Shown here: piece by piece, positions 2,886-60,500 of the stretch | Position numbering within the stretch: the stretch's first letter is position 1 | How the letters are laid out: each line of letters opens with the position of its first letter | Origin: Chiloscyllium plagiosum | Taxonomy: Eukaryota | Direction: 5' to 3' | DNA length: 64,000 nt | Assembly: GCF_004010195.1 (NCBI RefSeq) | Contig: NC_057719.1 | Location: 27,005,323-27,069,322 of the forward strand | Position numbers and translations under genes: made by a program | Notes under the pieces: model-generated | The model's input: the letters and a program-made list of their open reading frames with translations, nothing else | Database searches by the model: none | Told to the model about the DNA's origin: nothing

Positions 2886-4035
2886 TAAGGAATACTGCTG
2901 AAAATCTCCCCTCCAATGCATAAACTGGATGTGAAATTTGCCTCTATAATAGCAATGACTACAGTTGTTCGTTGGCTATGAATTTGTGCATCTTGTGGAT
3001 GTGGTAAAGCACAGCTAAGTTTCTTTGTTCTTCTTTGAAATTTGGCAAAATTTGAGTTGAGAAGTTGGCAAAAGTTGAGAAGCAACTCAGACTCAGAACA
3101 ATTAGGGCAAGCTTTCGCTATTGCATTTCTTTATCTAGTTCACAGGGATGTGATGCAATCTATTGAGAGCTTTGACTTTTGTTCCTCGCACTAAGCTGAG
3201 AAATGTATTTAAAACAAATGGCTAAAGTTTCAGTTTTGCATTCCTGACGCACATGGACACATCAAAATAGGTTCACAGCTATCTTGATCGGTCTTGCTGT
3301 TCATTCTTCTGTACCATGTATTAAAGCTCAGTCATTGCTTCCACAGCGAAGGGAATATTCTTGTTAGAATTATTCTCCCAGACAAGAGAGGTTCTTCTGG
3401 CTGAGTCCCAGGAATTCGGGCTAGGATTTGACCAGGCGCTGACTAGGATGGATAGGCCTCATTGATGTCTTTGGTTGTTTTCTTTCAAATCTAAAATATG
3501 TAAATAACCTGAAGTTACCATATGCATTTGACATTCTGTTACACTTGTGCTTTGAAGCACTTTGCTCTGATAAAGTATCATTTTGACCATTAATACCCAG
3601 GATTAGTCATACCCATTAGTAGTACAGAGTAAGTGAACTCATCCTGCATGATAAGATGAGAATGTATAATCTATGGTGTTTACCTTTTTATCAGTCACCT
3701 TCCTGTGTTGGTATTAAAGAACATCAAGCTCCCACAGTCTCTGGGCTGACACCCTTCCTTTCCTGCAATTCCACCAAAGACAGGTTTAACTGCATATTCA
3801 TTTTCTTGCTGCTTGTAGAATCTTGGGATTCACAAAGCTGTCTCTCACATTTCTCTACTTCAGAGCAATCACATTTGCAAAGGAACTCACTCTTTGTGAA
3901 GTGCTTTGAATCATAGAATCCCTACAACCTGGCAGCAGGCCATTCTGCCCGTTAAGTCCACACCGACTTTCAAAAAGCATCCCACTCAGACACAGGCCCC
4001 CTATTCTATCCCTAAGACCTTGCAATTACCATGGC

Positions 4036-4255
4036 AAAAGTGAGGACTGCAGATGCTGGAAACCAGAGTTTAGATCAGAGTGCTGCTGGAAACGCACAGC
4101 AAGTCAGGCAGCATCCGAGGAACAGGAAAATCGACATATCGGGCAAAAGCCCTTCATCAGTCCTGATGAAGGGCTTTGGCCCGAAATGTCGATTTTCCTG
4201 CTCCTCGGATGCTGCCTGACCGGCTGTGCTTTTCCAGCACCACTCTGATCTAAAC
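4036..4255. mobile_element. Non-autonomous PLE-derived fold-back element, family A
   Basis: ~93-bp inverted arms 4068-4255 centred on cttcatcag-tc-ctgatgaag; same sequence family as the PLE terminal repeats at 19486-19600 and 24040-24160; degenerate TSD 4018-4035 / 4255-4272 (14/18). Confidence 0.85.
4163..4190 (+). ncRNA. Minimal type-I hammerhead ribozyme motif (family A)
   Basis: CUGAUGA-A-GGGC(UUUG)GCCC-GAAA-UG-UC; core residues intact, ACGU palindrome decayed to AUGU. Confidence 0.65.
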
Positions 4256-4639
4256 CCTGCATTTACTATGACCAGTCCACCTAACCTGTACATCTTTGGA
4301 CTGTGGGAGGAAACCCATGCAGACATGGTGAGAATGTGCAAACTCTACATAGAGAGTGGGATTCAACCCGGGTCCCTGGTATTGTGAGGCAGCAGCGCTA
4401 ACTACTGAGTCACCATGCTGCCCTTTGGGGCAGAGGCATCCTCAGAAATCATTATAATAATGATTTGAATCTTCTGAAGTGCAGCAGTCACTGGGCTGTT
4501 GGTACAATCAGGTTCCACTTTACTGGCCAGGTCTTCTGTTCCAAGCACCTTCAGAAATGCTGGGTGCACCAAATCTTTAATTCCTTCCTGGTTCAAAGGA
4601 AGGATCACCACGAGTAGTCAAGATTGGCAGCATTTGCTG

Positions 4640-7232: not shown

Positions 7233-7325
7233 TCTTTTAATGGTGGCAATCTGTAATTAGCTAAATGCTGATTAAATTGGCAAGCAAATGCTTTTTCTTT
7301 TAAAAGCCTGTTATGGTTCAACAAG

Positions 7326-7573
7326 ATTTGGAGATGCTGGTGTTGGACTGGGGTGTACAAAGTTAAAAATCACACAACACCAGGTTATGGTCCAACAGGT
7401 TTAATTGGAAGCACACTGGCTTTTGGAGCGTCGCTCCTTCATCAGGTGGTAGTGGAGGGCTCAATCCTAACGCACAGAATTTATAGCAAAAATTTACAGT
7501 GTGATGTAACTGAAATTATACATTGAAAAATTGATTGTCTGTTAAGCCTTTCATCTGTTAGAATACAGTGATA
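7326..7573 (-). mobile_element. PLE terminal-repeat fragment, family B, with decayed hammerhead (7417-7445)
   Basis: Matches the end of the GIY-YIG-bearing element at 11165; 10-bp TSD gttcaacaag at 7316-7325 and 7574-7583. Confidence 0.85.
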
Positions 7574-8126
7574 GTTCAACAAGGAGTGGGAAAGACAAAA
7601 ACAATTCTACTCCTCACCTTATCATAACACTTCACATTTCTCTGTATAAATTTCCTGCTAGGGCCTGTTTCCATGCTGTATGACTGTATGACTCTATGTA
7701 TCTGTTTATTCTATACATTTGTCTACGTCTTACTAAAATCTGTTAAAAATTACCTCCTGTGCCATGATTGATAAATTAATGTCGGATCTGGTTTGGGGGT
7801 AAGCAAGGTAAACTTTGGCTTCTGGGCTGGTTTACCCCCATGATCCTAGGCCGAGTTCTTAAATGAGGATGGCTGAGGACAGATCTACTGTCCATTGCTT
7901 CCCAATAGTCAGCTAGTTAAGGCAAATGACAAATAATGATCAGATAGATACCATTCCTACATGAGCTGGATTCTTCAGTCAACAATATTTGCAGGCTATG
8001 TCATTCTGGACCATGTCCTCAAGGTAGTAAGTGGGAAGACTCTGAAAAATCACATAAAGTGACTACTAGATATCCCATGTGGGATAGCTCTGCCATGATC
8101 GTGGTCGGACAACTGTGGCCATTTTA

Positions 8127-8226
8127 AACAAAAATAGAAATTGCTGAAAAAGCTGAACAGATGTTGCAGCGTCTGTGGAGAGAAATCAGAGTTAACATTT
8201 CAGATCGAGTGACCCTTCCTCAGAAG
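8127..8226 (-). mobile_element. PLE-type terminal-repeat fragment, family C, hammerhead motif at 8194-8223
   Basis: Minus strand reads CUGAGGA-A-GGGUC(ACUC)GAUCU-GAAA-UG-UU-AAC; homologous to 27710-27815. Confidence 0.7.
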
Positions 8227-8486
8227 TATGTCCATTTTAATTTGTTTTGAAAACTGGCCTTTTCCTTTTGAAGTTGAGGTGCCCTCTTTTTTACCATCAC
8301 AAAAATGCAGTTCCCACCTCAGGTGGTGCTGTTGCTGATGTATTCATGTGCAGAGGCTTCCCATTGGGATTCTAGCATTGAGAGCCCACCTTGCCATCCT
8401 TAATCAGACAGTGACTCTATTCCCTGCTATTAATTGATGTGGCCCTTTAGAAATCTGCATGGGTGTGTTTGAGATGCTGCCACGCA

Positions 8487-8583
8487 ACAAAGGCTGCGAT
8501 TTCTAAATTTGGAATCCGAAACCCAGTGCTGATGTTAGTCGGCGCTGGGTTTCGGATTCCAAATTAGAAATCACAGCCATTGT
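8487..8583. repeat. Near-perfect ~45-bp inverted repeat with a ~6-nt loop
   Basis: ggctgcgatttctaaatttggaatccgaaacccagtgctga / tcggcgctgggtttcggattccaaattagaaatcacagcc. Confidence 0.9.
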
Positions 8584-10504
8584 TTATTGTGTTGCCAAGT
8601 TTCATGAACCTCAGATTTATAATCCATATGCCCAGTCAAATGCTTGAACACTGTATACAGTGTATTTCACTCATTCTGAAAGTCAAGCATTCAATAATAA
8701 CCTGGCTTGGGTCTTGGGCTTTGGTTCATGGATCTTGATTTTGCTCACAGTTTATTTCAATGGCTTTGACATTTCATTTATCTTTAAACCACAAAGTCCT
8801 CATCAAGCTTCTATTATTTTGTATGCTTGAATGTTTGAACATTAAATATTAAGTTTGTTCCAAATTTATATGAAATAGTGTTTAAAATTTGGCAGAGAAT
8901 ATACATAGATAATCCTTTTCTATTCTAGTAAATATGGCTTAATTTGAAATTAAAATAGCTAATTATTAAACCTTTCTTTCCTGGAATATGCAGCTGACAT
9001 TTAATTATCACTGCAGTTTATATTTGTTTTATATTTGTTTCAGTAAATATTTCTTTTGGTCGTTTCATTCTCACACAGGGTTTGGTTGAACTCTGAAATG
9101 TGCAGGCTGGGAGTGTGGGTGAGGGAGGTTCAGTCAAGGCATTGAAAGTGGAATAAGTGGCTATTTGTAAAGAAATAAAGAGAAAAAGCAGGAGAATGGC
9201 CCTAATTGGGATATCATTTGGAGACCCAACATAGAAATGATGCGCTGTAAAACTGGTTGGATTTTTTTTCATGCAAAAATAACTTGCAAATGAAATGAAG
9301 TACTGATTAACCCCCTGTATAATCCATGTTGCAGAATTAGTTTGGAACAGTTATTATGATTGGCATGTAAAGCCACATCATTCTAGGTACTCTAACCATA
9401 GTGATCAAGAGTTAAAAAGAACAATTGATTTTTCTTGTTTGTTGAGCAAGAAATCTTCTCCTTGGTTATTGTTCCTAAACGTAATATCAACATCATTCCA
9501 TTTTATTCGTATTATTGAAGGAACCCCTTGGGAATTGAACTTTGTCCATATTTTTTAGCTTTATATTGAGTAAAGTGCTCTCATCTGTGACTTGGCTTAC
9601 TATTTTACTTAAAAATATGGTATTGACTATGATTGTAATTGGTTGTAATTCAAAAAGTGTGTTTGATGGTAATGTAGATTTTGATACAGCACAAACAGAT
9701 TTGAATTTGAGTGCAATAACTTATTGACTGCATAACATTATCAGTAGGTAAATTGAACCGAGATAGAGCACATGAATTATGTTTGAGCTGAGAGACTGTT
9801 ATTCGCAAACTGAACAAGCATGTTCAAAAAGATAGCTTGAGATTTAATTAACCATCATTGTCTGTGTAACTGTTGGTCTATACGATTTCCATTGAAGTGG
9901 GTATTGATCATTTATTCAGATGGAAGCTAATTAATTTTGAGAAAGTTGCCAAGACGTCCCACAGAGAAATAATGAGCTGAAGCGGTTGCTAAAAGAATGT
10001 AAAATAAATTACGCTCAGCTTTAAATTACATAGCAATGTGGAATAGAACTCCTTTTATTTCCAAATTGTACTTCATGTCTTAGACAAAGGAAACAAGTCA
10101 TCTACACTCCTTGTGGACAAGGAGCTATTTGCAGTAATCTAGTATGGTATTATTTTTAGTTAAAGGATTATGTATTAGGTGAAAGAAATGTAATGGAAAT
10201 GCCAGTAATGTCTGATTCTGATTCTGGTGTGATTGTTGATACTCTGCTGAAACACCAACTAGACATGGCAAGAGTTACTGATCACTTGTCTTTTCTTGAT
10301 TTTGTTATTGTGTGAATTTTCACACTATACTTTGCTGCTGTCAGAAAGCTGTCTATATATCAGGGTTGATTTGTAGTGAGAATGGAGCCATTTATTTTGC
10401 TTTAATCCACCCCCCCCCCCCACCACCCAACTGGATTATTTTTTATTGAAAACATGCTCTCCTTTCCCGGGGAAGACAGGAGCAGTGTTTCAAATTTTTT
10501 AAAC

Positions 10505-10830: not shown

Positions 10831-11164
10831 ACCTCCCGAAACTGAGAGATGTGGTTCTGTAATCCCAAGTTTGAGACTTCCACAACTCCTTTCTAGAAAA
10901 AAGAATGTGACCAAGTATTTCCTGAAACAGAATAAGAAAAATTTGTGACAAACTTCTGGAGCCTAAAGTATTCGAGAAGTTCTGCTGTTTCCGAGTCTGA
11001 ACAAGTATATTCTCCACCTGAGTCAACAGAATGTTAAAGCCACTTTTCTTGTAAGACCTTCAAATTTTTGGCTGAGAACTTTGAGAAAATTAATGGCATA
11101 AATCTAGCCATTTCCTACTTCCAACTGATTTCACACTTCTGAAGTGACAGCCATTAAGTTACTG

Positions 11165-12263
11165 ATTTGAAGATGCTGGTGTTGGACTGGGGTGAACAAA
11201 GTTAAAAATAACGCAACGCCAGGTTATTGTCCAACAGGTTTATTTGGAAGCTCTAGCTTTTGGAACGCTGCTCCTTCATCAAGTGGTTGTGGTGTATAAG
11301 ATCATAAGACACAGAGTTCATAGCAAAAGTTTACAGTGTGCTGTAACTGAAATTATATATTGAAAAATACCTGGATTGTTTGTTACGTCTCTCATCTTTT
11401 AGAATGACCATGTTGGTTTCAATTCTTTCATTTGTAAACCACAGAACTTTTTTAAAGTTGCTTTCTCAAGTGAACTTTAACAATCGATGTCATGTAGGCC
11501 CAGATAATGCATTGAAGGTGTGAGGTGCCCTGTGTGAGACTGTCTGCGCCACAATGTTCAGACTGATTCTAATCTAAAAAATAGATTTTTAGAGTCTTAC
11601 ATGGATTTATGCAGTTTTTGAGAAAAATAAAATGTGATTCTGCAAGTACAAATTCATTCCACAAATTTGTGTGTGTGTGTGCACACATGTGGGTGTGTGT
11701 CTATGGGTAGGAGTTATGAGTTTATGTGAGAGAGTGTGTGTGAGTGTAAAGGGGTATGAGAGGGTGCGTGTGTGCGTATGAGTGCGCAAGTGCATGTGTG
11801 ACCGTATGAGAAAGAGAGCTTGTGTATGAGAGAGGGTCTGCATGAGTATGTGGGTCTAGAAGAGTGTGTGTGTGTGTGTGTGTGTAGTGCAGTGGGATCA
11901 CCTGAAGTGTGACATGAACCCAAGGTCCTAGTTGAGGCCATCCCCATAGGTACCGAACTTGGCTATCAGACTCTGCTCGGCCACTTTGCGTTGTTGCCTG
12001 TCCCAAAGTCCGCCTTGGAGGATGGTCACCCGAAGGTCTGAGGTTGAATGTTCTGGACCGCTGAAATGTTCTCTGACTAGGAGGGAACATTCCTGTCTGT
12101 TGATTGTTGTGCGGTATCCATTCATCTGTTGCTATAGCCTCTGCTCAGTCTCGCCAATGTACCAGGCCTCAGGCCTTATCATTGCCTGCAGTGTATGAGA
12201 TAGACAACGTTGGCTGAGTCGAATGAGTACCTGCCACGTACACGGTGGGAGGTGTTCCCATAG
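11165..12263 (-). mobile_element. 5'-truncated Penelope-like element, family B
   Basis: ORF 11928-12125 (RTTINRQ...VREHFSGPEHSTSDLRVTILQGG...AEQSLIAKFGT..GLN) is a GIY-YIG C-terminus; (CA)n-rich UTR; decayed hammerhead ~11254-11282; TSD ttaagttactg / ttaaattactg at 11154-11164 / 12264-12274. Confidence 0.88.
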
Positions 12264-13623
12264 TTAAATTACTGCATCTGCTTTTTATTCACTGGTGTTA
12301 AGCAATCTGCAGAGTACACAGTTTTTGAATTGCCAAATCTCAGCCACACAAAAGGAAAAAGCTTGCTTCAGGTAAATGTTTCTTTCTAAATATGTCAAGA
12401 CAGACAGTTCTGGACAAGAGAGAGTCTTTTTTTGGTGTTGTTGAATAATAGCAAGATCATCATGGTGTCAAGCACGAATTTGCAGATTCTGTGTTCCGAG
12501 TCCTCAAAGAGCTGATGAGATGAAGAAGTTTGTGCAAAAATACAAAGATATTCCTTCATTGTATGTAAAAGAAAGTCAGTACAGATATAGTTTGTTTGGC
12601 AAACTGTCTGGGAAGAATTTTTTATACATAAAAATTGAAGAATGGGAATCTGAATGGGATTGTATTAATTCCACTTCAACCCTTGATAAAATGCTTGCCT
12701 ACTCTATGTATTTACTGTGGAGTTTTATGTGAACTGTCCATCCCAACCTCATAGGCCCGGAATCCCGCACTGCCCAGTTCTACCTCTTATCCAAAATCCA
12801 CAAACCCGACTGCCCCGGTCGACCTCTCATCTCCGCCTGCTCCAGCCCTACAGAACTTATCTCCTCACAACTCGATACCGTCCTGCCCTCCTTAGTCCAG
12901 GAACTCCCTACATACATTTGGGACACCACCCATACCCTCCACCTCCTCCAGGACTTTGATTTCCCTGCGCCCCAGCACCTCATCTTCACCATGGACATTC
13001 AGTCCCTATACACGTCCAAGTCCTCCATTTCTTCCTCTCTTGCCAACCCAACTGACGCACTCATTCAGCTGGCAGAATTGGCCCTCACCCTCAACAACCC
13101 TCAACAACTTCTCCTTTGAATCCTCCCACTTCCTTCAAAGGGGTAGCCATGGACACCCACATGGGCCCCAGCTATGCATGCCTCTTCATAGGATACATGG
13201 AACAGTTCATCTTCCGCAGCTGCACTGGCACCATTCCCCATCTTTTCCTCCATTACATTGATGACTGTATCGGCGCCACCTCGTGTCCCACGAGGAGGTT
13301 GAACAGTTCATCAACATCACTAACACTTTCCACCCTGACCTTAAGTTCACCTGGACCATCTTGGTGACTTCCCTCCCCTTCCTGGATCTCTCCGTCGCCA
13401 TCTCTGATGAGCGACTCAACATGGACATCTGTTTCAAATCCAATGGCTCCCACAGCTGCCTTGACTACCTCCTCCCACCCACCCCCCCACCACCTGTAAA
13501 AACACGATCACTTACAATTCCTCCGCCTCTGCCATAACTGCTCCTAGGAGGAGCAATTCCAGTCCAGAACATCCCAAATGGCCTCCTATTTCAAGGACCA
13601 CAATTTTCCCTCCCACATGGTAG

Positions 13624-14443
13624 AAGATGGTATTAGTAATAACATTAGCAAATTTGCTGATGATACTAAGCTGGGTGGCAGGGTGAAATGTGATGAGGAT
13701 GTTAGGAGATTACAGGGTGACCTGGACAGGTTAGGTGAGTGGTCAGATGCATGGCAGATGCAGTTTAATGTGGATAAATGTATGGTTATCCACTTTGGTG
13801 GCAAGAACAGGAAGGCAGATTACTACCTAAATGGAATCAATTTAGGTAAAGGGGCAGTACAGAGAGATCTGGGTGTTCTTGTACACCAGTCAATGAAGGT
13901 AAGCATGCAGCTACAGCAGGTAGTGAAGAAGGCTAATAGCATGCTGGCCTTCATAACAAGAGAGATTGAGTATAGAAGCAAAGAGGTTATTCTGCAGCTG
14001 TACAGCGCCCTGGTGAGACCACACCTGGAGTACTGTGTGCAGTTCTGGTCTCCAAATTTGACGAGAGACATTCTGGCTATTGAGGGAGTGCAGCGTAGGT
14101 TCACAAGGTCAATTCCTGGAATGGCGGGGCTACCTTACACTGAAAGACTGGAGCNNNNNNNNNNNNNNNNNNNNNNNNNNNNNNNNNNNNNNNNNNNNNN
14201 NNNNNNNNNNNNNNNNNNNNNNNNNNNNNNNTGCTCTGTCCCAGAGGGCAGTGGAGGCCCAGTCTCTGGGTTCATTTAAGAAAGAGTTGGGTAGAGCTCT
14301 CAAGGATTGTGGAATCAAGGGTTATGGAGATAAGGCAGGAACAGGATACTGATTAAGGATGATCAGCCATGATCATATTGAATGGTGGTGCAGGCTCGAA
14401 GGGCAGAATGGCCTACTCCTGCACCTATTGTCTATTGTCTATT
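13624..14443 (+). mobile_element. 5'-truncated CR1 LINE (different subfamily) nested in the PLE
   Basis: ORF 13578-14279 switches to [11 protein letters not shown]...RPHLEYCVQFWSP; tail (ctattgt)n; PLE sequence resumes at 14444. Confidence 0.92.
14155..14231. other. Assembly gap
   Basis: Run of N. Confidence 1.
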
Positions 14444-16532
14444 GGTTAGCGATGCCCTCCAGTGCATCTCCTCCACTTCCTGCACCTCCACCCTTAACCC
14501 CACCCCTCCAACCACAATTAAAACCCCCCCCCGGTCATCACATTCCACCCCACTAATCTCCGAATACAGCGCATTATGCTCCACCATATCTGCCACTTAT
14601 GATCAGACCCCACCACCAGAGATATATTTCCCTCCACACCCCTATCTGCATTCTGCAGAGACCATTCCCTCCGTGACTCCCTCATTAGGTCCGTGCCTTC
14701 CACCAACCCACCCTTTACTCCCAACACCTTCCCTTGCCGCCACAAAAGATCTAAAACCTGCATCCACACCTTGCCCCTCACCTCTGTCCAAGGCCCAGAG
14801 AATCTTTTCACATCCAGTAGAGGTTTTCCTGCACATCCACTCACCTCATTTACTGTGTCTGTTGCTCTCGATGTGGTCTCCTCTGCACTGGGGAGACAAG
14901 ACGCCAACTTGCAAAACATTTCAGGGAATGACTCTGGGATACATGCACCAAACAACTCCACTGTCCTGTGGCCAATCAATTCAACTCCCCCTCCGACTCC
15001 CCCAAGGACATGCAAGCCCTGGGCCTCCTCTACCGTCAAATCCAAGCCATTCAACACCTGGAGGAAGAGCGCCTCTTCTTCTGTCTTGGGACCCTCCAAC
15101 CACACGGCATTAGTTACCTCATCTCGCGCCCCCCCCCCCCCATCTAATCCCAGATCCAACCGTCCAACTCCGAACCGCTCTCTTGAACTGTTCTACCTGT
15201 CCATCTTCCTTCCCAACTATTTGTTCCACCCTCCTCTCCGACCTATCACTATTGCCCACCCCACCTGCATCTACCTATCTGCAGTCTCCACCACCCCATC
15301 CCTATCCTCCCCACCACCACCCAAAACTAGCCCACACTGGTAAAGTTATTTGACTTCTGCATGGTGCAGGCATTTCCCAGCAATAGATAAAATCAGGCAG
15401 TGACAGATGAGACCCATAAGTGACCATTAACTGACCTCCCATAAAATTTCAGATAGACTGGGTTGGGTCGGGTAGGTGGTGGGAAGGCCCCTCATTGGAT
15501 TTCAGGCACTTCCCACCTTCATACTCTTGGGCATTGACATAGCACCACTGTAAGGTTACCTGTTTGCCAGAATCTCAGGAAGCCAGATCACCTTGTCTGT
15601 GATTTGGCATGGCAGTCCCACTTAGACATATTTGAACACCAGCAGAATTGATCATGCACAGATTTATGAATTGTCAGGTTGGTATCACCCAATCTAAACC
15701 CCTGGATAACTTTGTGGTGTGGAAGATCTTATTTTAGCATCATTCCATTTATGCTCTTTCATACCTCTTCCTTTATGGCTTTGTGGGACATGAATATTCT
15801 TAAATTAGGTGAAACTCATTTTATTTCACTCTCAATTAATTTCCACCTGTTTCTTGTAATGGCTTCTCTGTCCTTATTTGTGACAGTGTGCCTGGTAGAG
15901 CATGTGACTTGCTGGGAGTTGGATGCAGTTGCAGTAAGAGAGAGCTGAAGAAGCAAAGGGAATATGATGACACTTACCCTGGCAGAGTTGAGATCTTGTG
16001 GAATTGCCGGGGGTTTCTCCAGCCACTTGAGGGCTTTGGATCGGTCTAGCTGGATCTGATGTTGAGCCCCATTTGCGGGAACTCGGGAGAGGACATCTCT
16101 CCTGTGTAGCAATCCATCCACCAGGACCTTTAGCCCCTTGTCTGCAAACTAGAGCATCAGGTTTCCCTTATTTGCCTCTTCTCGACAAATATCACAAATC
16201 ATGCAGGGCAGCTATGGACTGCCAGCACTTGATTGGAAGCACAATGGCCTTTTAAGATTCAGCCCAATGTCATTTATATATGTGTCACTGGTGACATATA
16301 ATAAACTATATCTTGTTAATGACAAGGAAGTCTTGTTGTTAACCCCGAAGTGGACTTGCTGTACCACACTCGATCAGACGGGCTTGGTAGTGTACTGCAC
16401 TGAGTGAGGATGGTGGCAGTAACCCTCCATGCACAGCGGTGCAGCGAGTTGGCATGTCCATAACAACATAAATCAGCAATTTGAAAAAGCAGCCATCATC
16501 CAACAGTTTTTAAACAATAATTAAAGCTGAAG

Positions 16533-16742
16533 TAAAAACACAAATAAATGTTGGAACTACTTAACAGGTTTGGCAGCATCTGTGGAGAGAGACAGAGAGA
16601 GATAACATTTCAAGGAATGACCCTCTTCTAGTTTTGACAAGCATCATCAACCTAAAAGGTTAACTCTATTTCTGTATCTACAAGTGCTGCAAAATGTACT
16701 GAGTACTTCCAGCATTTTCTGTTCTTATTTCTGATTTCCACT
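16533..16742. mobile_element. Old degraded family-C-like fold-back element
   Basis: Left arm ...tggcagcatctgtggagaga resembles 8127-8190; right arm gttaactct...tgctgc...ttccagcattttctgtt is its approximate reverse complement. Confidence 0.55.
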
Positions 16743-17411: not shown

Positions 17412-18168
17412 GTCATAGAGTCATACAACACGAAAACAGACCCTTCAGTCCAACTCGTCAATGTCGTCCAGATCCCATTTTATAGCATTTGTTCCATATC
17501 CCTCTAAACCCTTCCTCTTGATATAGCCATAAAAGTGCCTTTTAAATGCTGTAATAATACCTTCCTAAACAACCATAAATGCACCACCCTCTGTGTGAAA
17601 ATGTTACCTCTCGGATTCTTTTTAAATCTTCTCCTCTCAGAGTAAACCTATGCCCTTTAGTTTTGGACTCTCCCACCCTAAGAAAAAGAACCTGGCTACT
17701 TACCCTATCCATGCCCCTCATGATTTTATAAACATCTATAAGGTCACCCCTCAGCCTCTGACGCTCCAGGGAAAATAGCCCCAGCCTATTCAGCTTCTCC
17801 CTATAGCTCAAGCCCTCTAACCCTGGCAACATCCTTATAAATCCTTTCTGAACCCTTTCAAGTTTCACAACATCCTTTCTATAGCAGGCAGACGAGAGCT
17901 GTACGCAGTATTCTAAAAGTGGACTCACCGATGTCCTGTACAACCGCAAAATGATATTCCAACTCCTATACTTAGTGTTCTGACCAATAAAGGCAAGCCT
18001 GCCAAACGCCTTCTTCACCATCTTTTCTACACACATTCCCCTCAGCCCTAATGTTAACTGTATAGGTCCTGCCCTGATTTGCTGTGCCTAAATGCAACAC
18101 CTCACATTTATTGAAATTGAGCTTGATCTGCCAGCCCTCAGCCCATTGGTCCATCTGATCAAGGTCCC
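17412..18168 (-). mobile_element. 5'-truncated HER1/CR1 LINE
   Basis: ORFs 17542-18036 and 17972-18154 (CR1 RT C-terminus); antisense tail gtcatagagtcat. Confidence 0.9.
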
Positions 18169-18219
18169 ATCCTTCTGAAATATTCTCACAATTTAAAATG
18201 CTTCCAACTTCTGCAAGGT

Positions 18220-18602
18220 AGAGTCACAGGTAGATAGGATAGAGAAGAAGGTGTTTGGTATACTTCCCTTTATTGGTCAGAGTATTGAGTATAGGAGTTG
18301 AGAGGTCATGTTGCGGCTGTACAGGACAATGGTTAGGCCACTGTTGGAATATTGAATGTAGTTCTGGTCTCCTTCCTATTGGAATGATGTTGTGAAACTT
18401 GAAAAGGTTCAGAAAAGCTTTACAAGGATGTTGCCAGGGTTGGAGGATATGAACTATAGGGAGATACTGAATTGGTTGGGGCTGTTTTCCCTGGAGCATC
18501 GGAGGCTGAGGGGTGATCTTATAGAGGTTTATAAAATCATGAGGGGCATGGATAGGATAAATAGACAAAGTCTTTTCCCTGGGGTGGGGGAGTCCAGAAC
18601 TC
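18220..18602 (+). mobile_element. CR1 ORF2 fragment in the opposite orientation
   Basis: ORF 18392-18667 (KLEKVQKSFTRMLPGLE...LGLFSLEHRRLRGDLIEVYKIM). Confidence 0.88.
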
Positions 18603-19485: not shown

Positions 19486-19553
19486 ATCAGAGCTGAAAAT
19501 GTGTTGCTGGAAAAGCGCAGCAGGTCAGGCAGCATCCAAGGAACAGGAGAATC

Positions 19554-19581
19554 GACGTTTCGGGCATAAGCCCTTCTTCAG
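19554..19581 (-). ncRNA. Intact minimal type-I hammerhead ribozyme motif (family A)
   Basis: Minus strand CUGAAGA-A-GGGC(UUAU)GCCC-GAAA-CG-UC; palindromic ACGU helix III. Confidence 0.8.
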
Positions 19582-19646
19582 GAATGAAGAAAGTGTGTCC
19601 AGCAGGCTAAGATAAAAGGTAGGGAGGAGGGACTTGGGGGAGGAGC

Positions 19647-20205
19647 NNNNNNNNNNNNNNNNNNNNNNNNNNNNNNNNNNNNNNNNNNNNNNNNNNNNNN
19701 NNNNNNNNNNNNNNNNNNNNNNNNNNNNNNNNNNNNNNNNNNNNNNNNNNNNNNNNNNNNNNNNNNNNNNNNNNNNNNNNNNNNNNNNNNNNNNNNNNNN
19801 NNNNNNNNNNNNNNNNNNNNNNNNNNNNNNNNNNNNNNNNNNNNNNNNNNNNNNNNNNNNNNNNNNNNNNNNNNNNNNNNNNNNNNNNNNNNNNNNNNNN
19901 NNNNNNNNNNNNNNNNNNNNNNNNNNNNNNNNNNNNNNNNNNNNNNNNNNNNNNNNNNNNNNNNNNNNNNNNNNNNNNNNNNNNNNNNNNNNNNNNNNNN
20001 NNNNNNNNNNNNNNNNNNNNNNNNNNNNNNNNNNNNNNNNNNNNNNNNNNNNNNNNNNNNNNNNNNNNNNNNNNNNNNNNNNNNNNNNNNNNNNNNNNNN
20101 NNNNNNNNNNNNNNNNNNNNNNNNNNNNNNNNNNNNNNNNNNNNNNNNNNNNNNNNNNNNNNNNNNNNNNNNNNNNNNNNNNNNNNNNNNNNNNNNNNNN
20201 NNNNN
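19647..20205. other. Assembly gap
   Basis: Run of N (right edge approximate). Confidence 1.
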
Positions 20206-20689
20206 ACCCAACCTCCACTCCCGGCACCTTCCCCTGCCACCGCAAGAAATGCAAAACTTGCGCCCACACCTCCCCCCTTACTTCCCTCCAAGGCCCCAAG
20301 GGATACTTCCATATCCGTCACAAATTCACCTGCACCTCCACACATATCATTTATTGCATCCGCTGCACCCGATGTGGCCTCCTCTATATTGGGGAGACAG
20401 GCCGCCTACTTGCGGAACGTTTCAGAGAACACCTCTGGGACACCCGGACCAACCAACCCAACCACCCCGTAGCCCAACACTTTAACTCCCCCTCCCACTC
20501 CACCAAGGACATGCAGGTCCTTGGACTCCTCCATCGCCATACCATGGCAACACGACGGTTGGAGGAACAGCGCCTCATCTTCCGCCTGGGAACCCTCCAA
20601 CCACAAGGGATGAACTCAGATTTCTCCAGTTTCCTCATTTCCCCTCCCCCCACCTTCCTTGGTAAAAATACATACAAAATATTAATTTA

Positions 20690-22180: not shown

Positions 22181-23853
22181 ATGGAAGTTTTTCAGACACA
22201 TGAAGGTCTGTGGGTTTTCTATAGCAACAGTCAAAATATGACAACTGGAGTACGTTCTCTGTAGTAAGAGGCATTTTTGATATGGTACAGGTCATTTTCC
22301 CATGTCAGTTTGCTGTGTTGTCTTGCATCTCCATTTTATAATCCAGATTTTTAAACCAAAAAGATAAGGTGGTGAAGAATAAGTATACACAATTTCGCAT
22401 GGGTGGCCTTATTGCTAAATTCTTCTTGCATGAAGATTGGAACATAACTTTTAAGACAATGTAATTTCTTACTTCCCTGTTGCTTTGCTACTGAATGCAC
22501 ACTGTCACAGTTGACAGAATTTCCTCTGGGCATATAATAATGGGCTATCATTGGTGATAAATCTGTAGGTTTACTGCAAGAGACACAAAAGATGGTATTC
22601 ACCAGATGAGAATAATCAACTGAATGTCTGATGGTATTGAAATAGTTCTTTAGGACAGAGATATGACCATTGACACTGTTAACGCTTAGAAAAGTGGTGT
22701 GGCTAAATAAGGATCAGTTGACACAAAGAAATTGGTGTTATTTATCTTCTTTTCCAAGTGCTTGAGCTCTCACAGTTGCATTCAATAGTGCTCCATCATG
22801 GCTGAGAGAAGTTTCCTTCTAAGCTAAGGAAAGTCATTAGGTAGACTTGTCTTGCTATTGATAGGCTCCACTATTGATTGTGATTGGGAACAATTGCTTA
22901 AGTGTCAGCAATGCAAGTAGCCTACCCATCAACTATATGGGAAAAGTGATAACTAAAATAATAGCAATGCTAAAAGACAGTTTAAATCAGTGTGGTCTTG
23001 TGTAATCTGAGAAAGCAAGCATAAATAAATAAATAGCGAGTTTTTAACCTATAATTTAGAATGCTCCCTTGACTGATAATACTAATATGAGAGTACGCCC
23101 ACTCAAGGATAAAGGAGGGAAGTTATGTGTGGAACCAGAGCAAATGGGTAAGATCCTAAATGAGTACTTTACATCAGTATTCACCAAAGAGAGGGACGTG
23201 AGGGATGTTGAGTTTAGGGAAAGGTGTGTAAATATTCTTGGGCAGGTCAGTATAATGATGCAGGAAATGTTGGGTATTTTGAAATGTATTAAGATAGATA
23301 AGTCCCCAGGGCTAGATGGGATCTATCCCAGGATACTGTGGAAAACAAGGAAGGAAATAGCTCCGACCTGAATAGGTATCTTCACATTCACTTTGGTCTC
23401 GGGTGAGGTTCCAGAGGATTGAAGAATGACCAAAGTTGCTCCTTTGTTTAAGAAGGGAAGCAAGAGATAAATCAGGTAATTACAGACTGGTGAATGTGAC
23501 GTCGGTGATGGGGAAGCATTTGGAGAAGCTGCTGAGAGACAGGATTTATTCACATTTGGAAGCAAATAGATTTGTTAGTGATAGGCAGAATAGATTTGTG
23601 CTGGGAAGGTCATGTCTTACCAATTTGAGTTTTTTGTGGAGATGACCAGAATAATTAATGAGGGAAGGGCAATGGATGTTGTCTGCATGGACTTTAGTTA
23701 AGCATTTGGGAAGGTACCTCATGACAGGCTGGTTCAAAAGGTAAAGATTTGGGGAGCTGGCTTGATGGATACAAAACTGACTTGGTCATAGAAGCAGAGA
23801 GGAACAGTGGAAGGGTGCTTTTCGGAATGGAGATCAGTGAATAGTGGTGTTCC

Positions 23854-24161
23854 CCGTGGCTCAACACTTCAACTCCCCCTCCCACTCCACCAAGGACATG
23901 CAGGTCCTTGGACTCCCCCACCCCCACTCCGGCCTATCACCCTCACCTTAACCTCCTTCCACCTATCGCATTTCCAACGCCCCTCCCCCAACTCCCTCCT
24001 CCCTACCTTTTATCTTAGCCCGCTTGGCACACTTTCCTCATTCCTGAAGAAGGGCTCATGCCCAAAATGTCGGTTCTCCTGTTCCTTGGATGCTGCCTGA
24101 CCTTTTCCAGCAACACATTTTCAGCTCTGATCTCCAGCATCAGTAGTCCTCACTTTCTCCT
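23854..24161 (+). mobile_element. Mini PLE insertion, family A, with perfect 14-bp TSD
   Basis: aatagtggtgttcc at 23840-23853 and 24162-24175; starts in GIY-YIG coding DNA, ends in the terminal repeat; decayed hammerhead 24044-24071. Confidence 0.9.
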
Positions 24162-24874: not shown

Positions 24875-25220
24875 TTTAAGAGAGAAGTGTGAGGAGCATT
24901 TTTCAGAGGGTGGTGGGTGTCTGGAATGCATTGCGAGTGGAGGTCATGAAGGCAGGCACGTTAGCAACATTTAAAGTGTATCTTGACAGACATATAATTG
25001 GGAGGGGAACAAAGGGATAGAAACTGCATATGGGCAATAAATAGCAAGTTTAAGAGAGAAGTGTGAGGAGCATTTTTCAGAGGGTGGTGGGTGTCTGGAA
25101 TGCATTGCGAGTGGAGGTCATGAAGGCAGGCACGTTAGCAACATTTAAAGTGTATCTTGACAGACATATAATTGGGAGGCGAACAAAGGGATAGAAACTG
25201 CATATGGGCAATAAATAGCA
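24875..25220 (+). repeat. Tandem duplication, 172-bp copies, period 174
   Basis: 24875-25046 vs 25049-25220; one mismatch seen (gggagggga / gggaggcga). Confidence 0.92.
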
Positions 25221-26890: not shown

Positions 26891-27164
26891 CATTGTGGGA
26901 AAAGTTTAATTTCTGCTAGTTACTGTGCAGTGTCCTGTTCAATGCTGCCTCTATTCTATATTTTAGTCATCGGCCAGAATAGGGGTGATTTTCATTGTAG
27001 TTAATGGGTATAATGACCTTCAAAAATTAGGTATACATAATATTCAATTCCTCTTTAAACTGACTATTTTACAATCTGACCATTTCATGGTTGCAAGTGT
27101 ATCGTGGTTTGAAGTTATAATCTAAAAAGATAAAATTGCACCAGATTTGTTGGGGACTTCCAAT

Positions 27165-27289
27165 TCGAGAATGTTGTGCTGGAAAAGCACTGCAAGTCAG
27201 GCAGCATCTGAAGCTGCCAGACCTGCTGTGCTTTTCCAGCACCACACTCTCGACTCTGATTTCCAGCGTCTGCAGTCCTCACTTTATAC
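27165..27289. mobile_element. Family A fold-back element lacking the central hammerhead segment
   Basis: Arms gtgctggaaaagcac...ggcagc / gctgcc...gtgcttttccagcac; TSD tggggacttccaat / tggggatttccaat at 27151-27164 / 27290-27303. Confidence 0.85.
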
Positions 27290-27712
27290 TGGGGATTTCC
27301 AATGTTTGCTTCATTATAGAAGCTGTTCTGCAGCCCAGTGTATGCTTTGGTCTTATATTGTCTGGGATACCGTATCACACAGATATAAAATAAAATGTAA
27401 ATACAAAACGTGAAACAAAAAATGTGCAAAATAAAACCTTGGTCAAACATTTTCAAGACATTCATTTTCTAGCCAAATTCTATTTCTATTTCTAATTTTT
27501 TTTTCAGTTTTGCAATAGCTAATATCACAACTATATACTCACATACTATATACTAGATGGCTGAAACATTGACCACAACCGTTTTTGAGAAATCAATTTT
27601 AAGTTGGTTTAATAAACCAGGTTACCCTTCCTATTAACTACACCACAGAATAATTTGAAAGTAACTTTTTTAAATCATGCTAAAACACAATATTTACTAT
27701 CCCGTCTGAAAA

Positions 27713-27748
27713 GTTCTGAAGAAGGGTCACTGGACCTGAAACGTTAAC
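27713..27748 (+). ncRNA. Core-intact minimal type-I hammerhead motif (family C) within a ~27710-27815 repeat fragment
   Basis: GUU-CUGAAGA-A-GGGUC(ACUG)GACCU-GAAA-CG-UU-AAC: helix I GUU/AAC, 5-bp helix II with one G-U, palindrome AACGUU. Confidence 0.75.
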
Positions 27749-28407
27749 ACTGATTTCATGGCACAGGTGTTGCCAGACCAGCTGAGATTTTCCAGTAATT
27801 TCTGTTTTTGCTTTTATTTCTAAAGTACCGCGCAGTTTCCCTGGATCATGGATGTCTGGACATTAATTGTGTTTGATGAAAGAAAATTGAGCAAAATAAT
27901 CAATTCTGAAAATTACTGGAATTTTGAGTGCTTTGTGCTTCAGACTGCTATCTGTTCCCAAAGCACTTGGCCTATGCACTGAACAAAACTGATCCAAATT
28001 ATATTGTTATAATACCTTTTCTGAGATGAAATCTAGACTTAATGAAAAAATCAACAAGCAATCAGACTGTTGATCAGCTGGAGGCTAATTTTTATACTGA
28101 GAATCAATACCCCACTCCACCAGATATCTCACGTTGATACTTAAAGAGCTTCTATTTGTATACCTCATGTCTTCCTTAGATTTCCCCCTTTAAGTTGTCA
28201 TTTTGTCTGCTGTCCTTATGTTTTCTCCCTCAGACAAAGTTGAACAAATGTAAATTAAATCAACAATGCAAAAAATTTAAAATTAGAATTTCACTGCTAT
28301 GCAAGATACTGTGGAACCATTTCATACTAGATGTATAAATCCCAGATCTTAGTTGCTGACATTTTTATCAGTTATACTTCTTAACTGAATTGCTTTTGAA
28401 GTAAGTT

Positions 28408-43064: not shown

Positions 43065-43620
43065 AAGCATGACTACTAGATGTTCCAAAGCATTCAAATC
43101 AATGAAGCAGTTTTGAAATATCATGTAGAAAACACAATGAATAACTTCTGCACAGCAAGCTCCCACAAACAGCATTGAGACAATGAGCAGAAAATTTGTT
43201 TTTTGTTGTATTGATTGGGGAATAAGTATTGCCCAGAGCTTCAGGTTCAACTACCCAGCTTTCTATGAAATTGTGCCTTGGGAATTTTTACATCTGTCTG
43301 AAAGACCTTTGTGCTTAACATCTGAACTGAAATCCACAGTCAGGAGAAAGTGAGGGCTGCAGATGCTGGAGATCAGTGTTGAGAGTGTGGTGCTGGAAAA
43401 GCGCAGCAGGTCAGGCAGCATCCGAGGAGCAGGAGAATCGGCATTTCGGGCACAAGCCCTTCATCAGGAATGCTCATTCTTGATGAAGGGCTTATACACG
43501 AAACATCAATTCTCCTGCTCCTTGGATGCTGCCTGACTGGCTGAGCTTTTCCAGCACCATACTCTCGACTGAAGTCCTCAGCCTTCTGACTAGAGTGAGA
43601 GCAGTACCAACTGAGCCATA
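43065..43620 (-). mobile_element. Deu-domain SINE (SacSINE1/AmnSINE1-related) interrupted by a PLE hairpin
   Basis: Minus strand has the Deu motif tgctgtttgtgggagcttgctgtgc (~43150-43175) and tRNA head tggctcagttggtac at ~43605-43619. Confidence 0.75.
43342..43570. mobile_element. Family A PLE-derived fold-back element
   Basis: Long inverted arms centred on cttcatcaggaatg-ct-cattcttgatgaag; both hammerhead copies mutated; possible degenerate TSD actgaaatccacag / actgaagtcctcag. Confidence 0.85.
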
Positions 43621-49800: not shown

Positions 49801-50520
49801 GTTAATCAGCAGGTCACGATGCCAAACCAACACTTCTCTAATATACTACATTGACTTTGACCATTTTCTGAATGTTAAATCTTGACAAAACATAGGGGAT
49901 ATTCCCTATGGATGAATAATTTACAAAACATGCAGCAAGTGAGCTGCTCACAAAACTATAAAGGAATGAAGGCATTAGTGCAGGAACTGAAGTGCTATTA
50001 TTTTCTGTATTGCATGAATCCCTGGATGAATTCTAATTTCATCTTGCTTCCAAGTTTATTTTTGGCATTTTGTTATTATACTCGTTTATATTTCTGCTAC
50101 ATTTGTTTCTGGGGACGTTTTGCTGCAGATGACAGAGCAATATCCACCGGTGTAAAATCGAATCATGTGGTGTCATTCAGATCATTGAATCAGTTAGGAT
50201 GTCATTTTACTGTGGCATGGGTTAGAGAGAGAGGACCTGCTGAAAGTGTAATGGGATCTGCAAGAAAGCCTGCAACACAATCTGCTAAAACTATTCAAAG
50301 CCAATGATAGAATGTTATTGGATGGAGGTGTAAGGTTCTGAAAAGCTTAATGCTGCAGAGATGAATTAAGGAAACCCCCATTCCCTCTCCCAACAATATG
50401 GTGATGTCACAGGGCTTTGGATAGAGAACGACTTTGGACCCCAAGACACTAAGACCTAACATCAGGGTCTCCCTCATAGTCCAAGTAACAATGTCGATTA
50501 TAGCAATGTAACTTACACTT

Positions 50521-50725
50521 GATGATTTGGAGATGCTGGTGTTGGATTGGGGTGCACAAAGTTAAAAATCACGCCACACCAGGTTATAGTCCAACAGATT
50601 TAATTGGAAGCACTAGCTTTCGGAACGCTGTTCCTTCATACAACCACCTGATGAAGGAGCAGTGCTCTGAACGCTAGTGCTTTCAATTAAACCTGTTAGA
50701 ATGTAACCTAGTGTTGTGTGATTTT
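50521..50725. mobile_element. Family B PLE-derived fold-back element
   Basis: Inverted arms around ttccttcata / cctgatgaagg; 12-bp TSD taacttacactt at 50509-50520 / 50726-50737; + strand hammerhead 50645-50679 has GAAC in place of GAAA. Confidence 0.88.
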
Positions 50726-52084
50726 TAACTTACACTTAGTTGCTATGATGTGACAACCTACAATGCATTAAAGATAAAAGGCATTTTCTCATTAGACTAT
50801 AGGATAGTTCCCCTCTACCACACCAGATCAAGCAGGTCTTGTAGATCACTACCAGGGAAAGGGATCGTGGCAGCAAATCTATTAGATCTGCTCTTCACTA
50901 GGATTAGCTGTGATGATGATCCACCACACAGCATGGTGGCATCCGTCTGATTATTTAGCCTTAAAGCTAGATAGCAAGCAGTGCGGGTCTGAAGAGCCTT
51001 CAGAAACAGCTATGAGAGGGTTGGTGGTGTGACATATAACAGTTAAAAAACCCAAAATGTTAATTTCTCTGCAGAAGTGAAAACCAGAACAAACTTCTGT
51101 ATGATGGAATCTACAATTGATCAGAAAAAATATTTCAGACCTGCAGGAGACATATTCAAGGCAAGGGTGAGCTAGAAACTTCATGGAGCTAGAACACTAG
51201 TCACGCCTGAATGGTTATAATTTGCTTTGGGTGCTAATAATCCAGGAACAGTCCTGAGTTGACATGTAGCCAGAGGGCAGATGGACATTTGAGGCTCCAT
51301 GGGTTGTTGAAATGCTTGATGGGCAACTGAAAACTCTAAAAACAAATGACACTTGGAAAACTGGATATAAACAAAGTACTGGCAGTTCAGACTGAGTGCT
51401 GCTACCTAGTGACAGAGCACAAGGAGGTATGACTACAGTGGAAAATCAGTGGGACATCAGGGGCCAGAGTGGAAATTTGAAGTAAAGCTACAGACTCAGG
51501 AAATCTTAAAGCCAGAATTAAACCAATAAAGGGGAAATTTAAAAGCCTGAGCAAACAAAGTCTGATGAAATAAGAAAGTTTGGAGTTCATTGAGCCTGCA
51601 GGAAAGGTTGGAAATCTTTTACTTAAAGCTGTGGTTAAAACTGCAGACATTAGGACTTATTCAGGGAAAGAAAAACATTAAAGCAATGGGAATTATTATT
51701 TCACTACAGACAGTGCAAATCATTTCACAAAACGCACGAACAGAACTGGATTTGTCTTATAAAGACCCGGTGAGTAGGTTTCATTCACAACAGCCATTAA
51801 AAGAACAGGAATCATTTATTAAAGCCATAGGCCATGGAATTCATTTGGTACAACCAAAGTGATCAAGAATGTTTATTAAAGTAATAATTAGCAGGATTAA
51901 TTTAAGAAAAGCTGCAAATAAAAATGGGAATAATCCATTTTAGTCAGAATAAGCAGAAACTTTCCTATTTAACTGCAAAATGATAGCACTACACAGTAAC
52001 AGCAGCACTACACAGTAACAGCAAGGCAATACTGCAGAATTAATAACTCTTAAAGCAAGCAGAATAAATAATTATATTTGAATG

Positions 52085-57205: not shown

Positions 57206-57519
57206 GGGCGGCACGGTGGCACAGTGGTTAGCACTGTTGCCTCGCAGCGCCTGAGACCCGGGTTCAATTCCCGCCTCAGGCGACTGACTGTGTGGAGTTT
57301 GCACGTTCTCCCCGTGTCTGCGTGGGTTTCCTCCGGGTGCTCCGGTTTCCTCCCACAGTCCAAAGATGTGCAGGGTCAGGTGAATTGGCCATACTAAATT
57401 GCCCGTAGTATTAGGTAAGGGGTAAATGTAGGGGTATGGGTGGGTTCGCTTCGGCGGGTCGGTGTGGACTTGTTGGGCCGAAGGGCCTGTTTCCACACTG
57501 TAATGTAATCTACTCTAAT
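57206..57519 (+). mobile_element. Young-looking (CpG-rich) HE1 V-SINE inserted in the Gmr1-like RT, 5-bp TSD
   Basis: caagt at 57201-57205 and 57520-57524; removing it restores KLDLLRCY*QYPLSERAK...YQFKVMPFGL. Confidence 0.93.
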
Positions 57520-60500
57520 CAAGTCCAACTTCGAAATATATGCTGCTTGTCCCACTTTTTCGACACAGTCCTCCAACCGTGGAATTGGGTATGCATCAGT
57601 CTTTGTAACGGCGTTGACTTTGCGATAGTCCACACATAATTGTTGGGTATCATCTGGCTTTGGCACCATGACTATGGGTGAGCTCCAGATACTGTAACTC
57701 ACTTCGATTATGCCATCTTGAATCATGCGCTCTATCTCCTTCTGAACCTGTGCCAAAATTAGAGGGTTATGCCTATAAGCAAGTTGCTTAATTGCAACAG
57801 CATCTCCTATCTCTACATCATCACAATTAGTTTAGTACTTACCAGTTTATTTCCGCATATCTCTCAATGTGATAATAACTCTTTCAGGACATTTTGATTT
57901 TCTTGTGGAAGGTAGCTCAATAATTTATCCCAATTTTTGACAACTTCCTCATTGTCCAATTTGATTTGAGGACTGTCCAATTCAGAATCCTCTGAACTTG
58001 GTTCTTCCTCCTGTGTTTAATCATTAACACCGTCTCCTCTTGCTTTCCTTCCCTATCAAAATACCTTTTGAGCATACTCACATGACACACTCTCTGAGAT
58101 TTCTTCCTGTCTGGAGTCCTTATCAAGTAGTTCACCTCACTCAATTTCCTCTCAATTTGATAAGGTCCACTAAACCTGGCTTTTAAAAGCTCATCTGTTA
58201 CTGGAAGCAGCAACAGTACCTTACTGCCAATTGCAAAATTGCGAATTTGTATTTTGTTATACGCTTCCTGTTTCATTGTATGCTGTGATACTTTCAAATG
58301 CTGTTTAGCCAACTCTCCAGCTCTATTTAATCGTTTTCTAAAATTTGACACATCGTTCAAATAGGTGGTCTCTGAAATCTGACATATTAATTTCTCCTTA
58401 ATCAATTTTAATGGTCCTCTTACTTTATGCCCAAAAATTAATTAAATTGGACTGAATTTGGTCAATTCATTTGGTGCATCTCTGTTTGCAATCATCTGGA
58501 TAATCCTGACCATAAGCCCTCAACATGGTTTTTAGTGTTTGATACCATCTCTCTAGCGCTCCCTGTGATTCTGGATGGTACGCAGTAAATTTGAATTGCT
58601 TTATTTCCAAGTTATCCATATCCTCCTTGAATAGTTTGGAAATGAAGTTTGATCCTTAATCTGACTGGATCTCTATTGGTAGTCTGCATTTAGTAAAAAA
58701 ATTAAGTAATTCTTCTACAATCCTTTTTTGCTGTGATGTTGCATAATAGGATTGCCTCTGGAAATTTAGTCGACACATCCATTATTGTTAATAAATATTT
58801 ATTTCCAATTTTGTTTGAGGTGGGAACCTCAATCAAGACTTGTGAAAGGTTCCTCAAATGCTGGAATAGGTATTAAAGGTGCAGGTTTTATTACTGCCTG
58901 TCGTTTTCCGATTACCTGATATGTATGACACATCTGGCAAAATTCAACTACATCCTTGTGTAGTCCAGGCCCAGTAAAAACGTCTTTGTATTTTAGCCTA
59001 TGTTTTCCTCACCCCTAAATGATCTCCAATTGGTAGCTCATGCATGACTTGTAGCACCTCCTTTCTATACCCTACTGGCAAAACAACTTGATGAATCTCT
59101 GCCCATTTCTCATCTGCTTGAATGTATGAGCGTCTCCATTTCCTCATTAAAACATCATTTATTAAGTAATAGCACACACGAATGCATTCACTTTCTTTCT
59201 CAGTAAATGCCTTTTGATATAACTGTTTTAACTCCTCATCTTTCTGTTTTAATTCAATCACTTTAGCAGAGCTAAAAAATACTGGAATGTTTACTTATTT
59301 GCCCCTTCTCTGTTCCACTTATCTGATCAAAGAAAGTTTCGGATAACACTATGTCAGCTTCCTTATCTGTGCCTTTTGATCCCTCCTACTTCAACTTGTG
59401 CCTCTGTGATCTTGTGATCACACAATCAGGGAAAACTCTTGGATAAACATTCTTCATTTCTTCAGTGGCTGTGTCTCCACGGGCTTTTCAACTAGAGTAG
59501 GCAGCACGCCTACCAGTGAATCAGCTATATCATTTGCAAAGACAAATTGTATTCTTGGAGCTGAGAGTTTGTCCAGTATGCCTTCCACAAATTCTCCACT
59601 CTTCTCTGGACTCTCTAGCCTCACTTTATATAATTGAGCACTTTTGTCTCACCATAAATTCCTGTTACCAGTACCTTCTCTGGCAATAGCCCCTCAGAAG
59701 TGCATATCTCCTCATCCTTCATCCTTAAGAGGATCCTGTGTCCCTTAATATTGTAACCTCCTTATCTACTGCTCCTGACCTATGTGAATAAACTTTACCC
59801 TTGCATATATATATATTTTTTTAAGCAGATTTGGCACTTGATCCTTAATCAACCTCTGATCACCTTCTATGCTCTGAGGCAGTTGTCTAACTTCTCTGTG
59901 CTTTTTGTTACTAGTCCAACAAAACTTCCACGCTTGTCTGGTTTTCCTACACCTGGCTTTCTCCTAGCCCACCAACACTGTGATTTTTGTGTGGCTCACT
60001 TTATTACAGTGAAATCACTGGAGATTTTTAACTTCTTTGCTCCCTCAAGGGGTTTTTTCTACCCTGTGGTAAGTTATCCTTATGATCTTCACTGAGATCT
60101 ACCTTTCCCTTTCCACATAAGGGTTTCTCTTTGCCCCAATTCCTATCCCTCATGGACTGAAATTGATTCTGAAAGCCAGACCTGGTTTAATGGATCAGCT
60201 CATAATCATCAGCCACTTCAGCTGCTAACCTTGCTGTTTTAACTCAATGCTCTCCCACATGAGCTTGCACTGCTTCCTCATTAAGATTACCTTCAGCCTT
60301 TATCTCCAGCCTTTTAAGCTGACTTCCTTTTTTAAGTGTCAGTTTTTGAAGTTCAAAAGCTCACTCTTTTTCTTTCTTTGCTCTCTCTGTTCTGCTTTTA
60401 GTCTTAACTCAAGCTGTTTCATTTCTGCTGCCCTTCTCTCTCACCTCTGCTTCATTTGCAATTGAATTCTTGTCATCTCTATAGATTCAGATGGTTTCTC

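Follow-up and report, generated by a model that had tools for sequence, protein, structure and literature searches.

An insert of 219 bp (4036–4254) splits a SINE copy in the 64-kb stretch of DNA analysed here, hereafter the window. It is non-coding and almost wholly palindromic. Its two arms, 4064–4160 and 4163–4259, measure 97 nt each and pair at 89 positions (8 mismatches, 92% complementary) around a centre of 2 nt. The axis lies between 4161 and 4162, and the C of a CUGAUGA motif (4163) follows 1–2 nt further on. Folded as RNA, the hairpin has a predicted energy of −173.8 kcal/mol (z −22.8), and 0 of 200 shuffled sequences are equally stable. A terminal segment of 32 nt, the tail, is confined to the left arm. 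These values agree with the original prediction of a ~220-bp insert with ~93-bp arms, an axis 1–2 nt off CUGAUGA and an extra ~30 nt at the end of one arm.

The host SINE, which we take to be HE1 as it had been labelled beforehand, is duplicated at the insertion site. A degenerate target-site duplication (TSD) of 18 bp had been proposed here, and the two segments are indeed identical at 14 of 18 positions, a score equalled by one of 389 random flank pairs. Because uninterrupted paralogous SINEs at 35.5 kb and 62.8 kb have the segment once, running straight into the right flank, the duplication represents target sequence; the third of the three aligned copies (43.0 kb) is truncated or divergent at this site. 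The TSD has diverged more (4 of 18 positions) than the arms (8 of 97).

Penelope-like element ends in the window

Profile searches built from window copies recover 11 insertions, which fall into three hammerhead-bearing families of Penelope-like element (PLE) ends (Table 1). TSDs of 12–18 nt accompany 7 of them, hairpins and single copies alike; at the other four (19486, 16536, 27712 and 11163) a search for TSDs gave no convincing candidate.

The insert at 4036 belongs to family 1. Its arm is the 3' end of a PLE, because a TSD-bounded copy (23852–24161) joins endonuclease sequence to arm and tail: positions 23852–23926 are 92% identical over 75 nt to positions 20465–20539 of an endonuclease fragment. 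The link between arm and endonuclease runs through this copy, and no full-length copy lies within the 64-kb window. The frame of the endonuclease fragment (20206–20655) has 65 homologues among 436 candidates, many of them with RT (PF00078) or PF26215. Among the named ones, those of bamboo shark (88%) and whale shark (66%) rank highest. Upstream of the GIY-YIG core, within 20208–20651, it reads CHRKKCKTC, a CX4CxxC motif that falls within the pattern CX2-5CxxC. In this position the pattern is a mark of Neptune, and also of Nematis (PMC8557442, in excerpt). The linker points to family 1 being a Neptune/Nematis-type GIY-YIG PLE. Judged by its sequence, the 4036 insert is a pair of PLE ends, a minimal form of the published PLE insertion structure with its inverted end, one-sided tail of 30–40 bp and variable TSD.

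The same architecture had been predicted to recur at 43342, at 50521 and, without the centre, at 27165. The layout does recur, with a one-sided tail of ~34–38 nt (by eye) in all three hairpins. However, the hairpin at 50521 represents another family, with no BLAST match to the 4036 insert, and its left arm lacks CUG, which leaves one complete core.

Table 1 Features of the 4036 locus and PLE-derived insertions in the window
Feature	Position	Strand	Details
Host SINE copy split by the insert	3910..4424		matches other window copies on both sides
Left TSD copy, SINE sequence	4018..4035	+	14/18 identical to 4255–4272
32-nt PLE tail, left arm only	4036..4067	-	same tail terminates the non-inverted copy 23852–24161
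Left arm, PLE 3' end (minus strand is sense)	4068..4160	-	min-hammerhead motif 4160–4133, GAUA for GAAA
Centre 'TC', head-to-head junction	4161..4162		right arm contributes 2 nt of native sequence from upstream
Right arm, tail-less PLE 3' end	4163..4254	+	CUGAUGA 4163–4169, helix II 4171–4182, GAAA 4183–4186
Right TSD copy	4255..4272	+	4 of its first 5 nt agree with the continuing element sequence (microhomology)
Family 2 non-inverted truncated copy	7325..7564	-	TSD 14/16
Family 3 single stub beginning at CUGA core	8124..8228	-	TSD 14/17
Family 2 longer copy into decayed endonuclease-like coding sequence	11163..12300	-	5' end approximate; translations, profile search
Family 3 old degenerate hairpin	16536..16735		centre at 5' edge of core; no TSD recognised
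Family 1 tail-less end, running into assembly gap	19486..19646	-	intact GAAACGUC motif
Family 1 GIY-YIG endonuclease fragment	20206..20655	+	CX4CxxC linker motif; Pfam PF01541 E 5.3e-05
Family 1 non-inverted 5'-truncated copy	23852..24161	+	tail, internal deletion, endonuclease-derived 5' part; TSD 14/14
Family 1 hairpin without hammerhead	27165..27289		tail on right arm; TSD 27151–27164 / 27290–27303 (13/14)
Family 3 single stub	27712..27815	+	similarity begins 2–4 nt before core; no TSD found
Family 1 hairpin, other subfamily	43342..43572		centre +5/+7 nt upstream of core; TSD 43326–43339 / 43568–43581 (12/14)
Family 2 hairpin	50521..50731		centre −3/+8; TSD 50509–50520 / 50726–50737 (12/12)

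Further PLE sequence was noted in the window. The interval 19486–20655 consists of little-decayed family 1 sequence in opposite orientations on either side of an assembly gap (19647–20205). It is possibly a larger inverted insertion with an unassembled centre; no TSD was found. A decayed PLE coding region occupies 12733–15110 on the plus strand, with RT motifs and then an endonuclease, and no hammerhead end was recognised there. A piece of another RT-type LINE breaks it at ~13630–14445. Directly before this remnant, the AT-rich segment 12430–12720 resembles a decayed coding fragment.

Hammerhead motifs and positions of 5' ends

On the plus strand of the 4036 insert, CUGAUGA is followed by an extra A, helix II (GGGC-UUUG-GCCC), GAAA and UGUC, with the presumptive cut site after 4190. 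The minus-strand motif is the same except for GAUA in place of GAAA. The expectation of one hammerhead motif per strand holds for these boxes, complete on the plus strand and carrying GAUA on the minus strand, but not for helix III: where the 19.5-kb copy has the palindrome ACGU, both 4036 arms read AUGU. As read from the sequence, the plus-strand motif has its catalytic boxes and lacks an intact dimerisation helix. Its self-duplex is mispaired and weaker (−2.0 kcal/mol) than that of the 19486–19646 copy (−3.1 kcal/mol), the least decayed of family 1, which has GAAACGUC. All motifs were read directly; an Rfam search at gathering thresholds returned 0 matches. The 43342 hairpin has UUGAUGA on its plus arm and a GCC cleavage triplet on its minus arm.

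The pairing probability of helix II is 0.0 in the whole 4036 insert and in the nascent transcript, on both strands; in isolation it is 0.23 (plus) and 1.0 (minus). The zero probability is explained by the order of synthesis, since transcription of either strand begins with the antisense arm. The fold-back is thus predicted to bury both ribozyme motifs of the hairpin.

A native stem-loop overlaps the CUGA core of the 19.5-kb copy (19570–19595, minus strand, TTCTTCA-TTCC-TGAAGAA, 7 bp) and is weaker in the 24-kb copy. Folding predicts it to compete with the hammerhead.

The 5' end lies within −3 to +8 nt of the hammerhead core in 6 of the 11 PLE-end insertions, of which four are hairpins and the other two single stubs. 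The stub at 8124–8228 has its own TSD abutting the core. The hot spot lies ~27 nt upstream of the cleavage site. The chance of finding at least 6 of 11 ends in one 12-nt window is ~1e-4 if ends are uniform over the last 300 nt and the choice of window is allowed for, and 2e-3 for 150 nt; the statistic is post hoc, and copies missing the 3' end are left out of the count. Two of the six cases (16536 and 27712) have no TSD, and their ends were placed by alignment.

Ribozyme cleavage would produce 5' ends ~27 nt downstream from the first C of the core. We reject it as their cause because none of the 11 insertions ends there. An Inr-like TCATTCC at the hot spot was also considered; it is restricted to family 1, and the motif, found at 1.3% of positions, is too common to count. 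Our literature search, which covered main texts and few subscription papers, found no paper on such clustering of 5' ends; genomic ends are mapped in the supplements to PMC11167929 and PMC4209133, which may be relevant to it. Nor did the search turn up a paper on twin priming in PLEs or on minimal PLE hairpins of sharks centred on a hammerhead.

Origin of the hairpins

We hold with good confidence that the 4036 insert consists of two 5'-truncated 3' ends of a GIY-YIG PLE, head to head within a TSD, and that it is likely a one-off product of integration at this site, predicted to be dead and not to be copied as a unit. Two alternatives had been offered originally: a minimal product of PLE integration, stereotyped and inverted near the ribozyme, which the data support, and a retrozyme-like class amplified as a unit, which they do not. 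The sample that bears on this choice comprises 11 insertions, 5 of them hairpins, from one 64-kb window.

A retrozyme-like non-autonomous family would have the whole hairpin transcribed, self-cleaved or circularised, and re-inserted as a unit by PLE proteins. Size and layout are alike at four loci, mobilisation in trans requires no more than the PLE termini (PMC3846280, in excerpt), and retrozymes are derived from pLTRs (bioRxiv 10.64898/2026.07.22.740005, in excerpt). Nevertheless we regard this origin as highly improbable. A unique centre in every copy had been named beforehand as the observation that would speak against amplification as a unit, and the centres differ in all five hairpins, which come from three families. 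Counted in nt upstream of the core's first C (left/right arm), they lie at 0/+2 for 4036, +5/+7 for 43342, −3/+8 for 50521 and about 0/+3 for 16536; the centre of 27165 lies ~45 nt inside the arm. This last case is weak evidence of separate origin, as 27165 may have arisen from a 43342-type hairpin by subsequent deletion. A 3-nt insertion common to both 4036 arms is missing from the aligned arms of 43342 and 27165. None of the seven tandem arrays in the window is built on a hammerhead unit. The motifs lie on opposite strands, so that no transcript carries two sense copies for dimer cleavage, and they are decayed, with a helix II that is predicted by folding to remain unpaired in the whole or nascent transcript. 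We also tried arm identity as a discriminator: that between the arms of 4036 (92.5%) is barely above that between the 4036 right arm and the 43342 left arm (91.3%), and does not separate the models.

The short, non-coding and almost wholly palindromic 4036 insert also has the appearance of a DNA-transposon MITE with terminal inverted repeats. This reading can be set aside with near certainty, as it had been at the outset: TSDs vary between 12 and 18 nt rather than being short and fixed, the inverted repeats are asymmetric by 32 nt at their ends, and the same sequence forms the single end of endonuclease-linked copies.

Searches beyond the window add the following. Exact arm motifs have 0 matches in viral contigs and 0 in prokaryote genomes. 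All 17 metagenome matches were dropped as chance, since they extend over at most 32 nt with no similarity beyond. A search of sequencing runs found 20 with the region, from three organisms, with no RNA run among the matches listed.

For the one-off integration product that we favour, the following course may be envisaged. The RT-endonuclease would nick both target strands ~18 nt apart. One nick would prime cDNA at the tail end; the other, aided by microhomology, would prime at a start site 32 nt further in. Synthesis of both cDNAs would halt at nearly the same point, a little upstream of CUGAUGA, and the two would then be joined. This point would likely be where the element's transcript begins; otherwise it would be a structured site of RT stalling or of fold-back. 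It is not the ribozyme cleavage site. Priming at the 5'-proximal pLTR and its tail copy would yield a cDNA of only 95–130 nt. Such double priming resembles the twin priming of L1, with the difference that one and the same end is copied from both primers. By eye, three of four hairpins show microhomology where the tail is missing: 4 of 5 nt match at 4036, 6 nt at 50521 and no fewer than 3 nt at 43342, compared to at most 1 nt at 27165.

Several of these steps have counterparts in vitro. With anole Poseidon, both strands are nicked and extended, two internal RT start sites bound the tail, and 5' truncation of the template shortens the product, whose length is set by the template's 5' end (PMC11167929, in excerpt). 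The same excerpts describe ribozyme cleavage as dispensable for insertion and the RT-endonuclease as a predicted dimer. The hot spot likely reflects RT run-off at the transcript's 5' end, the most speculative step of the proposal. Run-off is favoured because PLE transcripts start in the upstream pLTR, which holds the ribozyme and the tail. In the D. virilis PLE, transcription starts 46 nt before an intron (PMC2377424, in excerpt), and the end of the intron abuts helix I (PMC4209133).

A single cDNA could give the same product by priming itself. Synthesised from the tail past the core, it would snap back on the native TCA-TTCC-TGA stem-loop and copy itself, and microhomology would join it 32 nt short of the tail. 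The 4036 axis coincides with that of the stem-loop, which has 7 bp in the 19.5-kb copy, and GTCC is one change away from TTCC; the microhomology at tail-less ends fits as well, and self-priming has already been proposed (PMC3846280, in excerpt). We consider this route unlikely all the same. The centres of 43342 and 50521 lack inverted microhomology and lie off the native stem-loop axis, the single-arm stub 8124–8228 begins at the same place with no folding back, and the tail-less end corresponds to an RT start site in vitro (PMC11167929, in excerpt). Alternatively, the hairpins may have been longer inverted PLE insertions, later shortened by deletion across the palindrome centre. The displaced centre of 27165, with a possible 2-nt overlap, speaks for this, and 19486–20655 may be a longer inverted pair with its centre hidden by the gap. 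However, later deletions would not be expected to halt again and again less than 12 nt from the core, and in three families at that, and the stub that begins at the core within its own TSD would be left unexplained; we judge this history very improbable.

Extending the one-off reading, we tentatively suggest, as a possible but still doubtful scheme, that a dimeric RT-endonuclease primes both nicks at the start sites of the 5'-proximal pLTR, that the cDNAs run off the transcript's end at the 5' edge of the hammerhead rather than at its cleavage site, and that minimal hairpins, stubs and long copies preceded by an inverted pLTR are three outcomes of this process. If true, the start of the element's RNA could be read from hairpin centres across families, and shark genomes would hold a huge natural record of PLE integration. 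The element itself is ordinary; its value is mechanistic, the hot spot of 5' ends being a handle on PLE integration. If the clustering holds genome-wide, abundant stubs would make it possible to test double priming against fold-back, as well as the role of ribozyme cleavage on the template. The excerpted text of PMC8557442 describes the origin of PLE inverted ends and one-sided tails as unresolved.

Comparison with known systems and other repeats

Inverted 5'-truncated copies with a one-sided tail of 30–40 bp are typical of PLEs (Craig et al. 2021, PMC8557442, in excerpt), and inverted pLTRs placed head to head, with junction palindromes and a TSD of 8–10 bp, have been described (Arkhipova et al. 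2013, PMC3846280, in excerpt). With these canonical EN+ complex insertions the 4036 unit shares its head-to-head 5'-truncated ends, one-sided tail, variable TSD and GIY-YIG partner. In contrast, it consists of two ends only, with no ORF-bearing body between or beyond the arms. TSDs in the window are also longer, 12–18 as against 8–10 bp (PMC3846280, in excerpt), and 5' ends cluster at the 5' edge of the hammerhead, which the excerpted canonical descriptions do not mention.

Dual min-HHRs on opposite strands, 100–700 bp apart, have been noted in metazoan PLEs (Cervera and de la Pena 2014, PMC4209133). The 4036 motifs share with them CUGAUGA, the extra nucleotide before G10.1-C11.1, GAAA, a 2-nt palindromic linker and UH. 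Contrary to these, the pair at 4036 is 2 nt apart, helix II has 4 bp, and the motifs, which have decayed, are predicted to lie buried.

Poseidon PAc of Anolis carolinensis (Frangieh et al. 2024, PMC11167929, in excerpt) also has two 3' ends a tail-length apart. The distance from cut site to tail end is 97 nt here and ~85–92 nt in PAc, as derived from positions in the excerpted text. PAc belongs to a different clade, and the excerpts of that in vitro study contain neither inverted products nor second-strand steps.

Non-LTR retrozymes are tandem same-strand units (PMC7229834; bioRxiv 10.64898/2026.07.22.740005; both in excerpt). Both they and the 4036 insert are short, non-coding and pLTR-related, with a type I hammerhead and a long TSD. 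According to the excerpted sources, retrozymes are arranged head to tail in tandem and form circular RNA (Cervera and de la Pena 2020; Li et al. 2026), whereas the 4036 unit is head to head and single. The window hairpins show no head-to-tail same-strand units and no shared unit consensus.

In genome annotation, hairpins of this kind can be mistaken for MITEs or for conserved RNA structures. The window has a further one at 8486–8584, with ~47-nt arms, a 6-nt loop and 84% over 100 nt. It is single in the window, has no obvious hammerhead core and matches none of the three PLE end families. An inverted pair of ~370-nt LINE-like 3' fragments (82%) lies at 17659–18601; the window contains at least four further copies of this family. 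At 57394–58441, translations read by eye reveal Gypsy-like coding fragments for RT and the integrase end. Finally, a 174-bp unit is repeated in tandem at 24875–25220 almost without change (99%); the duplication either happened very recently or arose in assembly.
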